A stretch of 28,756 nucleotides of DNA from contig JAEEGQ010000162.1 in the NCBI GenBank assembly GCA_016280395.1, positions 1 through 28,756 of the forward strand, in the 5' to 3' direction. A model generated the notes under the pieces. The model was not told the origin of the DNA, did no database searches, and saw nothing but the letters and a program-made list of their open reading frames with translations. This stretch comes from Lachnospiraceae bacterium (GTDB lineage: Bacteria; Bacillota; Clostridia; Lachnospirales; Lachnospiraceae). Numbering within the stretch: position 1 is the first letter of the stretch; each line of letters begins with the position of its first letter. Positions 1,161 through 11,432 of the stretch are shown here, one piece after another. A program made the position numbers and the translations under genes.

Positions 1161-1166
1161 ACTTCT

Positions 1167-1209
1167 GAGACAAAGGCGTCTCTGATCTAAGGGGTCAGAG
1201 ACGCTTTTT
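1167..1209 (+). terminator. Intrinsic terminator with an overlapping small hairpin, a candidate attenuator in front of glnN.
   Basis: The stem is gcgtctctga (1176-1185) paired with tcagagacgc (1195-1204), followed by TTTTT. A mutually exclusive 5-bp hairpin gagac-AAAGGC-gtctc (1167-1182) shares the stem's 5' arm. The glnN RBS follows 12 nt later and no promoter is evident. Confidence 0.55.
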
Positions 1210-1234
1210 ATAAAAAAACAAGGAGAAAACGACT

Positions 1235-8300: not shown

Positions 8301-9906
8301 CCTTATCTCTCCGCCGCCTCATCATGATATTTATTCCATAGAGGATCTGGCACAGCTTATCTATGATCTGAAAAATGCGAATAAAAACGCAAGGATCTCG
8401 GTAAAACTCGTATCCGAGGCAGGAGTCGGGACTGTGGCCGCAGGTGTTGCAAAGGCCGGAGCTGGAGTTATCCTCATCTCGGGATATGATGGCGGAACCG
8501 GAGCGGCGCCGCTCTCATCCATACATAATGCCGGACTCCCGTGGGAAATGGGTCTTGCCGAGACACACCAGACGCTTGTTGCAAACGGTCTCAGGAACCG
8601 TGTCGTTATCGAGACGGACGGAAAGCTCATGACCGGCAGGGATGTGGCTATAGCTGCAATCCTCGGAGCGGAGGAGTTCGGTTTTGCAACGGCACCGCTT
8701 GTAACAATGGGCTGTGTGATGATGCGTGTATGCCAGTCGGATACATGTCCTATGGGCATAGCCACCCAGAATCCGGAATTAAGAAAGCGCTTCAGGGGTA
8801 AGCCCGAATATGTGGAAAACTTCATGCGCTTTATCGCAAGGGAATTAAGAGAGATCATGGCCAAACTGGGCGTTAGGAGCATCAATGAGCTGGTTGGGCG
8901 CACAGATCTCCTGAAGGTAAAGGATTCTGCAGGAAACGCAGCTAAGCTGAACCTTTCAAGGATACTTCCTTCCATCGGGGGATTACACGGCAGCAAGGCC
9001 ATATTCGATCCTTCAAGAAGCTTTGATTTCAAGCTTGACAAGACGCCTGATGAAAGTGTGCTCCTTGCTTCAAAGGCGGTCAGAAAGTCGCTTGAAAAAG
9101 GCGAAAAAAGCAGTATCAGGATAAATGTGAAGAATACAGACAGGACCTTCGGAACGCTCCTTGGCGCGGAAATAACAAGGCGGTATCCGGACGGACTTGA
9201 AACGGACACGATAACGGTGGATTGTCTGGGTGCCGGAGGACAGAGCTTTGGCGCGTTCATTCCAAAGGGGTTAAGGCTCGATCTTACCGGTGAGAGCAAC
9301 GATTATTTCGGGAAAGGGCTTTCGGGCGGTACTCTTGTTGTTAAAGCGCCAAAGGAAGCAAAGTACGATCCGTCAAAGAACATCATCATAGGCAATGTCG
9401 CACTGTACGGGGCAACATCCGGAAAGGCTTTTGTGGCGGGAATGGCTGGCGAGCGTTTCGCAATAAGGAATTCCGGCGCAAGGGCTGTTGTCGAAGGTGT
9501 CGGAGAGCACGGCTGCGAATATATGACAGGCGGCTGCGTTGTTATCCTCGGACCGACCGGAAAGAATTTTGCGGCCGGTATGAGCGGCGGGGTAGCATAT
9601 GTTCTTGACGAAGAAAATAAGCTCTATAAAAACCTGAACAAGCAGCTTGTTACCATGGAGAATGTGGAAAACAGGAATGACAGGGAGGAATTAAAGAAGC
9701 TTATCGAGGAGCATGTCGCATCCACAGGTTCCGCTAAGGGTAAAGCGATCCTTGAAGCTTTTGACTCTTATGTTGACCACTTCAAAAAGATAATCCCCAC
9801 GGATTACAAGGAAATGCTCAGGCTTATACTTATGAACGAGGAAAACGGGCTTGACGGTGAAACGGCAAAGATCGAGGCATTTAAGACTTTCGTCGGAGGT
9901 GTGTGA
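5353..9906 (+). CDS. gltB: Glutamate synthase large subunit.
   Basis: The protein is about 1517 aa. It has an N-terminal Ntn amidotransferase Cys, FMN and Fe-S central and C-terminal domains, and a G-rich C-terminal repeat region. The start ATG at 5353 lies 6 nt after GGAGG. Confidence 0.92.
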   Translation: MSGLFKTIAEKGLYSDSFEHDNCGIGAIIDIEGRASHGIVCDALSIVENLEHRAGKDADGKVGDGVGILTQIPHRFFVKKLAEQGVTLGGPRSYGVGMFFFPAKDLDMRQARSLFEIITGKAGLKILAWRKVDSAPEVLGEKARNCMPGICQVFIERPSRAKTDLDFDRMLYVIRREFEQSCVNTYVPSLSCRTIVYKGMFLVGQLRSFYRDLEDEDYESAIAMVHSRFSTNTEPSWNRAHPNRLLVHNGEINTIKGNADKMLAREETMHTAAFSDEDMTKVLPVIHMSGSDSAMLDNTLEFLLMSGLDLPLAAMILVPEPWSHNETLSAEERDFYQYYATMMEPWDGPASILFSDGDSMGAILDRNGLRPSRYLVTDDGRLILSSEAGVLPVDEKHIIKKERLHPGKILLADTKTKRIYYDEELKEKYALSSPYGEWLDSNLLALRELKIPNKKVTELSGDYRKKLQKAFGYTWEDYRDGIRSMALTGAEQIGSMGVDTPLAVLSDSYQPLFYYFKQQFAQVTNPPIDAQREEIVTSRTVYLGKNGNLLQEKPENCHVLKINNPILTDLDLLKIENMKHEGFTVAKISTLFYKSTPMKRVLKQLFIEVDKAYRNGANILILSDRGMDENHVAIPSLLAVAAVHRHLVDTRKCTAMSLILESGEPRQVHHFATLLGYGASAVNPYLAHASIMELIEDGLLDKDYYAAVQDYDNAILFGIVKIASKMGISTIQSYQGSKMFEAVGISSEVTDEYFTGTVSRIGGITLDDIGRATDEQHSRAFDPLGLAADTELKAFGRHKERSGGESHRYNPETIHALQAATREGDYAKFKQYTKLADTEKTGYLRSLLDLVPEGPEVPLEEVEPEEEIVKRFKTGAMSYGSISQEAHETLAVAMNRLHGKSNSGEGGESDERLSTGEYENEKNSAIKQVASGRFGVTGKYLVSAKELQIKMAQGAKPGEGGHLPGKKVYPWIAKTRHSTPGVSLISPPPHHDIYSIEDLAQLIYDLKNANKNARISVKLVSEAGVGTVAAGVAKAGAGVILISGYDGGTGAAPLSSIHNAGLPWEMGLAETHQTLVANGLRNRVVIETDGKLMTGRDVAIAAILGAEEFGFATAPLVTMGCVMMRVCQSDTCPMGIATQNPELRKRFRGKPEYVENFMRFIARELREIMAKLGVRSINELVGRTDLLKVKDSAGNAAKLNLSRILPSIGGLHGSKAIFDPSRSFDFKLDKTPDESVLLASKAVRKSLEKGEKSSIRINVKNTDRTFGTLLGAEITRRYPDGLETDTITVDCLGAGGQSFGAFIPKGLRLDLTGESNDYFGKGLSGGTLVVKAPKEAKYDPSKNIIIGNVALYGATSGKAFVAGMAGERFAIRNSGARAVVEGVGEHGCEYMTGGCVVILGPTGKNFAAGMSGGVAYVLDEENKLYKNLNKQLVTMENVENRNDREELKKLIEEHVASTGSAKGKAILEAFDSYVDHFKKIIPTDYKEMLRLILMNEENGLDGETAKIEAFKTFVGGV

Positions 9907-11393
9907 TGGGAAAGACAACAGGTTTTCTCGAGTATGACAGAGTGCAGGGAGAGGTAAGACCTGCAAAAGAACGTATAAAGGATTTTAAGGAATTTCATGG
10001 GAAGCTGTCCTTCGAGGAGCAGAGAAAACAGGCGGCAAGATGCATGGACTGCGGCGTGCCCTACTGCCAGGCCGGGAAGATGATAGCGGGGATGGCCTCC
10101 GGATGCCCGCTGCAAAATCTTGTGCCTGAGACAAATGATCTTGTGTATCTCGGAAAGCTTGAAAAAGCTTATGAAAGACTCAGTATTACACACCCGTTCC
10201 CGGAGTTTACGAGCAGGGTGTGCCCGGCTCTTTGTGAAGCGGCCTGCACCTGCGGCGTGAACGGGGAGCCCGTGTCCACAAAGGAAAACGAAAAGACGAT
10301 AATCGAATATGCCTTTGAGCACGGGCTTACAAAAGAGGCGCCGCCTGCAGTAAGGACAGGGAAAAGGGTGGCTGTTGTGGGCAGCGGGCCGGCAGGGCTT
10401 TCTGCAGCCCAGACACTGAACCGCAGGGGACACGAAGTGACTGTCTACGAAAGAAAGGACAGGATCGGAGGTCTCTTAAGGTATGGAATCCCGAATATGA
10501 AACTTGACAAGTCTGTGATCGACAGACGCGTAAAACTGATGGAGGAGGCCGGCGTCCGTTTTATATGTAATGCGGATGTCGGAAAAGACACTGCCGTTTC
10601 CGAATTACTCGACACATACGACAGCGTCATTCTGGCATGCGGAGCATCGAATCCGAGAAATATCGATGCTCCGGGCCGTGACGCGAAGGGGATACGGTTT
10701 GCGGTGGATTTCCTTTCCGAAGTCACAAAAAAGCTTCTTGATTCGGATTTTAAGGATGTGCCGTATGAGCTTGCAAAGGGAAAGGATGTTGTCGTTATAG
10801 GCGGCGGAGATACGGGGAATGACTGTGTTGGAACCTGTATCAGGCTTGGAGCGAAGAGCGTAAAGCAGATTGAGATGATGCCAAAGCCTCCGGCAGAGAG
10901 GACCGCTTCAAACCCGTGGCCCGAGTGGCCGAAGGTCTTAAAGACAGATTACGGCCAGGAGGAGGCAATAGAGGTTTTTGGCTCCGATCCGCGCATTTAC
11001 AAGACCACGGTCAGCGAATTTGTTAAGGATAAAAAGGGAGCGCTTAAGGAACTGGTGCTGATCTCACTTGAACCGCACCGGGATGAAAAGACGGGGCGGA
11101 CAGTGATGAAGCCGGTTGAAGGCAGCGAGACCAGGATACCGGCGCAGCTTGTTCTCATAGCGGCAGGGTTCCTTGGGAGCGAGGCTTATGTTACCGAAGG
11201 GTTCGGCGTGGAAGTTGACGGGAGGACCAATGTTTCGACAAAACCCGGCAGCTATGCGTCATCACGGGAAAAAGTCTATACGGCGGGAGATATGCACAGA
11301 GGACAGTCTCTTGTTGTCTGGGCCATTGCTGAGGGCAGAAGATGTGCCCGTGAGGTGGACCGTGATCTGATGGGATACAGCAATATCGATTAA
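9906..11393 (+). CDS. gltD: Glutamate synthase small (NADPH-dependent) subunit.
   Basis: The protein has an Fe-S cysteine cluster (CMDCGVPYCQ) and the FAD/NAD dinucleotide motif VAVVGSGPAGLSAA. Its ATG overlaps the gltB TGA (TGATG), which indicates translational coupling. GGAGG lies 7 nt upstream. Confidence 0.9.
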   Translation: MGKTTGFLEYDRVQGEVRPAKERIKDFKEFHGKLSFEEQRKQAARCMDCGVPYCQAGKMIAGMASGCPLQNLVPETNDLVYLGKLEKAYERLSITHPFPEFTSRVCPALCEAACTCGVNGEPVSTKENEKTIIEYAFEHGLTKEAPPAVRTGKRVAVVGSGPAGLSAAQTLNRRGHEVTVYERKDRIGGLLRYGIPNMKLDKSVIDRRVKLMEEAGVRFICNADVGKDTAVSELLDTYDSVILACGASNPRNIDAPGRDAKGIRFAVDFLSEVTKKLLDSDFKDVPYELAKGKDVVVIGGGDTGNDCVGTCIRLGAKSVKQIEMMPKPPAERTASNPWPEWPKVLKTDYGQEEAIEVFGSDPRIYKTTVSEFVKDKKGALKELVLISLEPHRDEKTGRTVMKPVEGSETRIPAQLVLIAAGFLGSEAYVTEGFGVEVDGRTNVSTKPGSYASSREKVYTAGDMHRGQSLVVWAIAEGRRCAREVDRDLMGYSNID

Positions 11394-11432
11394 ATGAAGG
11401 ATGGGCTAAAGGCGCAGATAGGAGGCTTAAGT

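Follow-up and report, generated by a model that had tools for sequence, protein, structure and literature searches.

Hexaloop hairpins overlapping intrinsic terminators before nitrogen-assimilation genes of a Lachnospiraceae bacterium: a probable NitR-type antitermination element

Hairpin-terminator units at the locus

We analysed a stretch of 28,756 nt from a Lachnospiraceae bacterium (contig JAEEGQ010000162.1 of assembly GCA_016280395.1; hereafter, the window, meaning this whole stretch), which carries, among others, the genes glnN, coding for a type III glutamine synthetase (GS), amt-PII, coding for an Amt-PII fusion, and gltBD (Table 1). The subject of the analysis is an RNA element found in the leaders of these genes. 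At four sites (1167, 3354, 5242 and 5285) a hairpin of 3-5 bp, with a hexaloop AA(A/C)GGC (AAAGGC three times and AACGGC once), has bases in common with an intrinsic terminator. In all four units of the window, as well as in 172 units of related loci described below, the hairpin and the terminator are mutually exclusive, and the base pairs of the hairpin are far fewer than those of the terminator.

The terminator of the glnN leader folds with -27.8 kcal/mol (RNAfold, z -5.66) and uses the GGC of the hairpin's loop together with the hairpin's 3′ arm. The amt hairpin sits within the 5′ arm and the apical loop of its terminator, and the gltB leader carries two complete units in tandem, the transcript start of gltBD being predicted a few bases 5′ of the first hairpin. 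As for the gaps before glnN and amt-PII, the promoter scan gave no sigma70-like promoter in either of them. An earlier reading of the window, made by a model from its letters (hereafter, the sequence-only reading), had described these structures with exact coordinates and sequences. It held that the glnN hairpin and its terminator exclude each other, that the amt hairpin is nested in its terminator and that neither gap has a recognisable promoter; RNAfold and the promoter scan agree with it on these points. In the gltB leader it was right in placing two hairpins on tandem terminators, whereas the third AAAGGC that it saw there is the 5′ arm of the unit 1 hairpin. Four of the five motif copies that it listed are real units, and the fifth, before pyrG, was rejected (see below).

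We searched for such units with a neutral finder. Precisely, we considered as a unit any hairpin with a stem of at least 3 bp and a hexaloop AANGNN that was overlapped by a perfect 7-bp terminator arm with a T-run. These definitions of terminator and hairpin are simple, and the first three stem pairs are imposed by the finder itself. In the window, the finder returned exactly the four sites, all on the forward strand, against an expectation of 0.64 matches per Markov surrogate; four matches were obtained in 1 of 300 surrogates.

Table 1. Genes (called from Pfam assignments) and regulatory features of the window; hairpin loops are in square brackets
Feature	Position	Strand	Basis
asnB (5′ end cut off)	69-1160		Pfam
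asnB-glnN leader hairpin GAGAC[AAAGGC]GUCUC	1167-1182	+	sequence; finder match
glnN leader terminator, core stem 1176-1204, then U-tract	1172-1209, fold 1172-1208	+	RNAfold
glnN, type III GS	1235-3334		Pfam
glnN-amt leader terminator and U-tract (class B layout)	3347-3394, fold 3347-3385	+	RNAfold centroid, z -2.9
glnN-amt leader hairpin CCAC[AACGGC]GUGG	3354-3367	+	sequence; finder match
amt-PII (Amt-PII fusion)	3408-5189		Pfam
gltBD sigma70-type promoter TTGACA-17-TATCAT	5204-5232	+	promoter scan, 11/12 matches
gltB leader unit 1 hairpin AAGGC[AAAGGC]GUCUU	5242-5257	+	finder
gltB leader terminator 1, 11-bp stem and U-tract, begins in unit 1 loop	5250-5283 (stem-loop 5250-5275)	+	terminator scan; RNAfold; R1 match, 53.6 bits
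gltB leader unit 2 hairpin GGC[AAAGGC]GCC	5285-5296	+	finder; exact match to Geobacter core GGCAANGGCGCC (PMC2995071)
gltB leader terminator 2, 10-bp stem and U-tract, begins in unit 2 loop	5290-5323 (stem-loop 5290-5315)	+	terminator scan; RNAfold
gltB	5350-9906		Pfam
gltD	9903-11393		Pfam
pyrG; then carA, carB, purA, guaA	11433-13037 (pyrG)		Pfam
Several helix-turn-helix (HTH) and ORF6N genes	3′ end of window		Pfam

Word statistics and discarded models

The bare word AAMGGCG occurs 18 times in the window, mostly in coding sequence, versus 8.2 expected. The statistic of the sequence-only reading, by which an 8-mer-like motif of this kind was far rarer by chance, was hence overstated. In the RNAfold structures AAAGGCG pairs with CGCUUUU, and part of the word is what an A-tract plus GGCG at the base of the stem would give in any terminator. 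What lies beyond chance is the combination of hairpin, loop and terminator overlap, not the word itself.

The copy before pyrG (AAAGGCGC, 11408-11415) has neither a flanking stem nor a terminator, and its fold is like that of shuffled sequences (z 0.03); it looks like a chance occurrence of the word. In the related loci L021, L073 and L075, pyrG is preceded by real units.

A covariance model of the terminator structure (R1), a search of the kind that the sequence-only reading had proposed, found the glnN unit and gltB unit 1. It also matched two generic terminators, at 24775 and at 21499, gave the 5285 unit a low score and failed to find the amt unit, which is of class B (see below); being unspecific, it was dropped. 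A covariance model of the hairpin by itself is too small for useful E-values.

Some of this would be expected if the units were ordinary intrinsic terminators, some of them bidirectional, in which AAAGGCG is an A-tract plus a GC stem base mirroring CGCCUUU: the word pairs with the 3′ side of the terminator, it is common in coding sequence, and R1 matches unrelated terminators, the one at 21499 including AAAGCAAAGGC. This explanation is weighed below against the comparative data.

The site at 21499-21546 has two 12-nt arms, AAGCAAAGGCTA...TAGCCTTTGCTT, which form a perfect inverted repeat with ATTTTC after it. It is situated between two divergently oriented genes, an HTH gene (20744-21412, reverse strand) and a zinc-ribbon gene (21708-22688, forward strand). 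Its AAAGCAAAGGC comes without the closing C-G hairpin, and the site appears to be some other terminator with a look-alike of the word. From 20700 to 28756, the last third of the window, small HTH (Cro/C1-type), ORF6N and SPFH/GYF genes and unannotated open reading frames take over, and this part looks like a mobile or prophage-derived segment beside the metabolic cluster.

Occurrence in related loci

The Amt-PII protein of the window has its best matches in rumen and gut Lachnospiraceae, with 71-86% identity. We collected 80 loci, each centred on an Amt-PII homologue from a different species and taken with 10-kb flanks (related loci are designated by L and a number), and placed the nitrogen genes in them by tblastn. 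The finder gave 272 matches with an ANNGNN loop, 61 of which have the loop AAAGGC and 172 a loop AANGNN. The gene 3′ of these 172 matches was amt-PII in 77 cases, glnN in 21, asnB in 11, gltB in seven, pyrG in four, and gltD and carA in two each; other genes found in this position include purF (four loci), dapL, dapF, a gene for an alanine/sodium symporter-like transporter, and the GS-like/ANTAR operons considered below.

We then compared terminator-like sites by position. Within 300 nt upstream of amt, glnN, gltB, gltD, asnB or pyrG, the hairpin was present at 105 of 155 sites (68%), versus 61 of 1626 (3.8%) elsewhere in the related loci, this second group containing some sites that precede purF, carA and similar genes. 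The motif is therefore not equally common at the terminators of unrelated genes. An expectation of the sequence-only reading, that the loops are conserved in orthologous leaders, agrees with the data, since AA-N-GG-N hairpins recur in the nitrogen-gene leaders of relatives: the glnN ortholog of L078 has GAGGC[AAUGGC]GUCUC, other glnN leaders also have the element, and the amt orthologs of L002, L003 and L078 have CCAC[AAAGGC]GUGG. A single unit is present in 77 leaders, and 18 leaders, including that of gltB in the window, have two complete attenuators 43-228 nt apart, each unit with its own terminator.

Two short metagenome contigs from close strains, L088 and L089, extend upstream of the window and end before any regulator gene; over the overlap they are, respectively, 97% and 94% identical to it. 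The glnN leader is identical at 115/115 positions in L089, despite the 94% over the whole overlap. In L088 a promoter with a unit precedes purF, and asnB has the same arrangement; both lie in the stretch next to the 5′ end of the region covered by the window. Adding these two to the four units of the window, the source organism has at least six units within about 14 kb. The promoters of purF and asnB (L088 680-760 and 2310-2395) and that of gltB (5204-5260) are near copies of one another (TTGACA...cgTTATCATaac...TAaAAGaC[AAAGGC]GTCTTGGA), which is what the copying of one cassette of promoter and attenuator would look like.

From these positions, the proposed regulon would comprise amt-PII, glnN, gltBD, asnB, purF, pyrG, carA and the regulator operon itself. 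In the window, the hairpin and terminator finder gave no unit before carA, purA or guaA. The purA leader (17380-17497) contains a T-rich stretch and a sigma70-like promoter (TTGACT-17-TATCAT) without a hexaloop unit, so that purA and guaA, though 3′ of carAB, seem to be outside the regulon. A regulon centred on glutamine-using enzymes is also what one would expect of a minimal riboswitch sensing glutamine, or another nitrogen metabolite, directly. A hairpin of 16-20 nt with a six-base loop, however, has no ligand pocket comparable to those of known riboswitches, and Rfam gave no match on the whole window at gathering thresholds, glutamine riboswitches included, while by E-value the region 1100-5400 had only irrelevant sub-threshold matches; we consider a riboswitch extremely improbable.

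Some observations on individual loci may be added. In L055 and L056 (Agathobacter, about 5400-9900) two tandem glnN paralogues lie upstream of amt-PII, and one Agathobacter glnN is preceded by GAAC[GAAGGC]GTTC, which has G at loop position 1 and is uncounted by the finder. The amt leaders of L020, L023 and L033 (Ruminococcaceae/Clostridiales) are without the hairpin element and have instead, some 100 nt 5′ of amt-PII, a sigma54-like -24/-12 sequence, TGGAGCTACAATTGCA, an indication that nitrogen control works differently in this lineage. The 22-mer around gltB unit 1 (5240-5261, ATAAAGGCAAAGGCGTCTTGGA) was removed as a duplicate when redundancy was taken out of the set used in the next section; the entry from Oribacterium sp. 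WCC10 (L064, about 9750-9775), for its amt leader, is the same 22-mer.

Conservation, covariation and layout of the hairpin

We considered for covariation 111 distinct 22-mers. The closing pair is C-G in 110 of them; the second pair is GC in 71, AU in 29 and GU in eight, and the third is AU in 54, GC in 26, CG in 14 and UA in 10. Pairs 4 and 5, which are not imposed by the finder, are formed in 80% and 61% of the sequences, respectively, versus 30-53% overall in slid controls. In the loop, A1, A2 and G4 are invariant in a set that was selected for them, and G5 is present in at least 90% of the 111 units. Given this selection, the informative evidence on the loop is the excess of AAAGGC among the ANNGNN matches (61/272) together with the stem enrichment. 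To the latter belongs a count made with no stem imposed: AANGGN words in 147 nitrogen-gene leaders have at least four nested flanking pairs in 29% of cases, versus 2.5% in all sequence, while control words in the same stem test gave 3-4% in leaders versus 2%. The resulting Lachnospiraceae consensus is RGC-AANGGC-GCY.

The units have two layouts. In class A, to which the glnN and gltB units of the window belong, the 5′ arm of the terminator begins in the loop (GGCGCUUUGG...). In class B, represented in the window by the amt unit, the terminator uses the 5′ arm of the hairpin, as in GCGAUGC[AAUGGG]GCAUC...GCAUCGCUUUU; in this example the last loop bases are free of the terminator constraint and the loop is still AANGGN. 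Since class B loops keep AANGGN, the conservation of the loop is not merely a by-product of the terminator.

These data bear on the two explanations that do without a bound RNA hairpin. That the units are plain terminators appears largely refuted by the comparison of leaders, and we regard it as very unlikely: the hairpin is concentrated at the terminators of nitrogen genes, its closing pair is invariant and its stem covaries, the class B loops are conserved outside the terminator constraint, and many units stand directly 3′ of a promoter, with nothing upstream to terminate. The last point may instead call to mind a DNA operator for a nitrogen-responsive transcription factor just downstream of promoters, as many units in relatives start a few bases 3′ of the -10 box, at positions of roughly +5 to +25 relative to sigma70 promoters, and have an inverted repeat as their stem. 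But the stem arms vary with their complementarity kept, the conserved part is an asymmetric loop, the glnN and amt units of the window are found without a promoter, and the coupling to a terminator is systematic, all of which makes an operator highly improbable.

A second hexaloop hairpin of the A..G.. type (P1), ending within 25 nt upstream of the unit, was found for only 14 of 113 units, which is about chance level, and these 14 candidates are unconvincing, being AT-rich or overlapping -10 boxes.

A candidate regulator in the nitrogen cluster of relatives

In L079, amt-PII is followed by a gene of the GS family (418 aa) and by an ANTAR gene (188 aa, 3479-4045) with the ANTAR domain PF03861 (E 1e-15) and a receiver match below threshold. 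The same GS-like/ANTAR pair is present in L051 and L068, and L078 and L073 have GS-like genes where the locus is cut. For the ANTAR protein more than 200 homologues were found, and those with a named source come from Butyrivibrio and Pseudobutyrivibrio. Six of the homologues were looked up and represented six distinct contexts, in all of which (6/6) the pair lies in the same nitrogen cluster; overall, the pair was found in the nitrogen cluster of L079, L051, L068, L081 and L083-L087. B. fibrisolvens 16/4 (L081, with the ANTAR gene at 10001-10564) has the gene order gltBD-asnB-glnN-amtPII-[GSlike-ANTAR], while L084 and L087 have carB-purF-glnN-amtPII-[GSlike-ANTAR]-pyrG-gltBD. In L079, L068, L081 and L083-L087, that is in 8/8 contexts with an upstream region available, a unit stands upstream of the regulator operon. 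A putative regulator encoded among its presumed targets and preceded by a unit of its own has the classic signature of a cognate, autoregulated factor.

The closest solved relatives of the ANTAR protein are Rv1626, NasR, EutV and AmiR. The position of the phospho-accepting Asp is occupied by Asn in 15/15 aligned family members (C-x-I-N-x-P), so that the N-terminal domain is a pseudo-receiver, as in AmiR, and control by a partner protein would be likelier than phosphorylation. The neighbour of the ANTAR gene is the GS-like gene, and there is no adjacent kinase; the GS-like protein scores 313 bits versus a cut-off of 429 bits for type I GS. By analogy with AmiC-AmiR and NasS-NasT, we infer that this co-encoded GS-like protein may be the sensor that controls the ANTAR protein by protein-protein contact.

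Proposed mechanism and its weighing

We consider it probable that, when nitrogen or glutamine is limiting, the units act as sites of antitermination by an ANTAR protein of the NitR type. The sequence-only reading had arrived at the same idea, which is now supported by the conserved and covarying hairpins, by the presence of a candidate regulator in the cluster of relatives and by the match to the GnfR core described in the next section. By default, the nascent RNA would fold the strong intrinsic terminator, and transcription would stop before glnN, amt-PII or gltBD. The short hairpin is transcribed first and takes bases that the terminator needs, but to prevail it would need an RNA-binding protein that binds and stabilises it. 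This protein is most probably an ANTAR antiterminator of the NitR type, about 188 aa long, with a pseudo-receiver, a coiled coil and the ANTAR domain. Released or activated under nitrogen or glutamine limitation, it would bind the hairpin at its hexaloop and closing pair while the RNA is being made, and would keep the terminator from forming, so that purF, asnB, glnN, amt-PII and gltBD-pyrG-carAB are transcribed. When nitrogen is plentiful, the terminators, whose stems are much longer, would win. At glnN and amt the units are internal and lack a promoter; they would set graded levels of expression within the operon.

Several points weigh against this mechanism. There is no ANTAR gene in the 28.7-kb window, and the slot between amt and gltB/pyrG, which in several relatives holds the GS-like/ANTAR pair, is empty in it: unlike in L081, L084, L085, L086 and L087, amt-PII is directly followed by the gltB promoter and leader (5190-5349). 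The regulator must then be elsewhere in the source genome or have been lost. The canonical dual-hairpin architecture is absent, and EutV binds a single hairpin much worse than a dual one (PMC3369931); moreover, many units begin so few bases after the -10 box that there is no room for a P1 hairpin. The loci were gathered via Amt-PII, so that amt is over-represented among the genes with a unit. Finally, the support for the mechanism is entirely comparative, and induction under nitrogen limitation is assumed from precedent.

The same gaps would be accounted for if the element were a genuine antiterminator read by an RNA-binding factor without an ANTAR domain, for example a moonlighting GS, a PII-domain protein or an unknown protein. 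Besides the window having no ANTAR gene and the single-hairpin layout being a misfit to the dual-hairpin need of EutV, an ANTAR gene lies within 10 kb in only 4/80 Amt-centred loci. However, in every checkable context the element precedes the GS-like/ANTAR operon, which is itself embedded among the targets, and the A1/G4 loop rule and the core GGCAANGGCGCC are equal to described ANTAR sites; on balance, a reader of another kind seems unlikely.

We therefore return to ANTAR antitermination, of which a more specific form can be tentatively put forward, though we would rather not bet on it: a stripped-down ANTAR circuit in which one hexaloop hairpin suffices and the non-phosphorylatable pseudo-receiver is switched by contact with the co-encoded, catalytically divergent GS paralogue acting as glutamine/nitrogen sensor. 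If true, such a circuit would coordinate ammonium uptake, GS and glutamate synthase (GOGAT), and the major glutamine amidotransferases (asnB, purF, pyrG, carA) of a family that is dominant in gut and rumen. More generally, the units would provide a concrete RNA-level mechanism of control for the central nitrogen-assimilation genes of Lachnospiraceae, would bring into the regulon glutamine amidotransferases that act in purine, pyrimidine and asparagine synthesis, and would point to the GS-like protein as a possible sensor partner of the pseudo-receiver ANTAR protein. The hairpin-plus-terminator rule is simple enough for these attenuators to be annotated automatically.

Comparison with known systems

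The substrates of ANTAR proteins such as EutV, NasR and AmiR are two tandem A1/G4 hexaloop hairpins, the second of which overlaps a terminator, and are mostly found at nitrogen genes (Ramesh et al. 2012, PMC3369931). In Clostridia, e.g. Desulfotomaculum and C. thermocellum, they have been predicted before genes for PII, ammonium transporters and glutamate/glutamine synthases (PMC3369931). For Butyrivibrio, Roseburia and Eubacterium eligens, the genome scan with the dual-hairpin model gave only matches annotated as hypothetical protein, and no nitrogen-gene matches in these three Lachnospiraceae genomes (PMC3369931), so that the nitrogen regulon of the family was apparently missed by that model. 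The units described here share with the canonical targets the A1/G4 hexaloop, the short stem, the conserved closing pair, the overlap with a terminator and the association with nitrogen genes. They differ from them in having one hairpin per terminator, instead of P1 and P2 with a short linker, and in the further conservation of loop positions 2 (A) and 5 (G).

As for NitR, it is presumably a small protein, encoded directly 3′ of the glutamine synthetase gene glnA in the glnA-nitR-gltAB cluster of Clostridium saccharobutylicum. In Lachnospiraceae relatives the ANTAR gene lies directly 3′ of a GS gene, inside the GS/GOGAT cluster, and it is absent from the window; unlike in the NitR system, the GS gene beside it is a divergent paralogue, and a type III GS (GlnN) is also encoded in the cluster. 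NitR itself is described as an ANTAR protein that acts by antitermination and switches on the GS/GOGAT genes when nitrogen is limiting (Stutz et al. 2007, as cited in PMC6316151 and PMC4676874).

With AmiC-AmiR and NasS-NasT the candidate system has in common a receiver-like N-terminal domain without phospho-acceptor and a co-encoded protein that could be the sensor. In this case, however, the candidate partner is of the GS family and not of the periplasmic-binding-protein fold, and its interaction with the ANTAR protein is wholly conjectural.

The core of the element has a counterpart in Geobacter sulfurreducens, where gnfR-dependent antitermination has been shown at nifH (Ueki and Lovley 2010, PMC2995071). 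The predicted GnfR site is a conserved CAGGCAANGGCGCC that, in the nifH, nifEN and glnK-amtB leaders, lies 5′ of the terminator and extends into it (PMC2995071). The Lachnospiraceae core GGC-AANGGC-GCC equals CAGGCAANGGCGCC and likewise overlaps the 5′ half of Rho-independent terminators. In the window, 5285-5296 is exactly GGCAAAGGCGCC, while 5244-5255 reads GGCAAAGGCGTC and 1169-1180 reads GACAAAGGCGTC; the 3′ end of the terminator, GGCGCCUU, is common to both systems. The suggestion of the sequence-only reading that the element may belong to a family not yet catalogued hence holds for Rfam but not for the literature, in which this core had been described (PMC2995071); our literature searches found no study of nitrogen regulation at this RNA level in Lachnospiraceae. 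The regulators are differently built: Geobacter GnfR belongs to a two-component His-Asp phosphorelay with the kinase GnfK, under a sigma54 cascade (PMC2995071), whereas in Lachnospiraceae Asn takes the place of the phospho-Asp, the regulator gene is paired with a GS-like gene, and the promoters are of the sigma70 type. The regulon consists of assimilation genes and glutamine amidotransferases, and not of nif genes.

Taken together, the element works like, and most probably belongs to, the ANTAR/NitR/GnfR class in a single-hairpin form, with a putative regulator for this genome, and is a new Lachnospiraceae case of the kind described in Geobacter and predicted in Clostridia. What would set it apart is that it makes do with a single hairpin, that its regulator has a pseudo-receiver and a GS-like partner, and that glutamine amidotransferases are part of its regulon.

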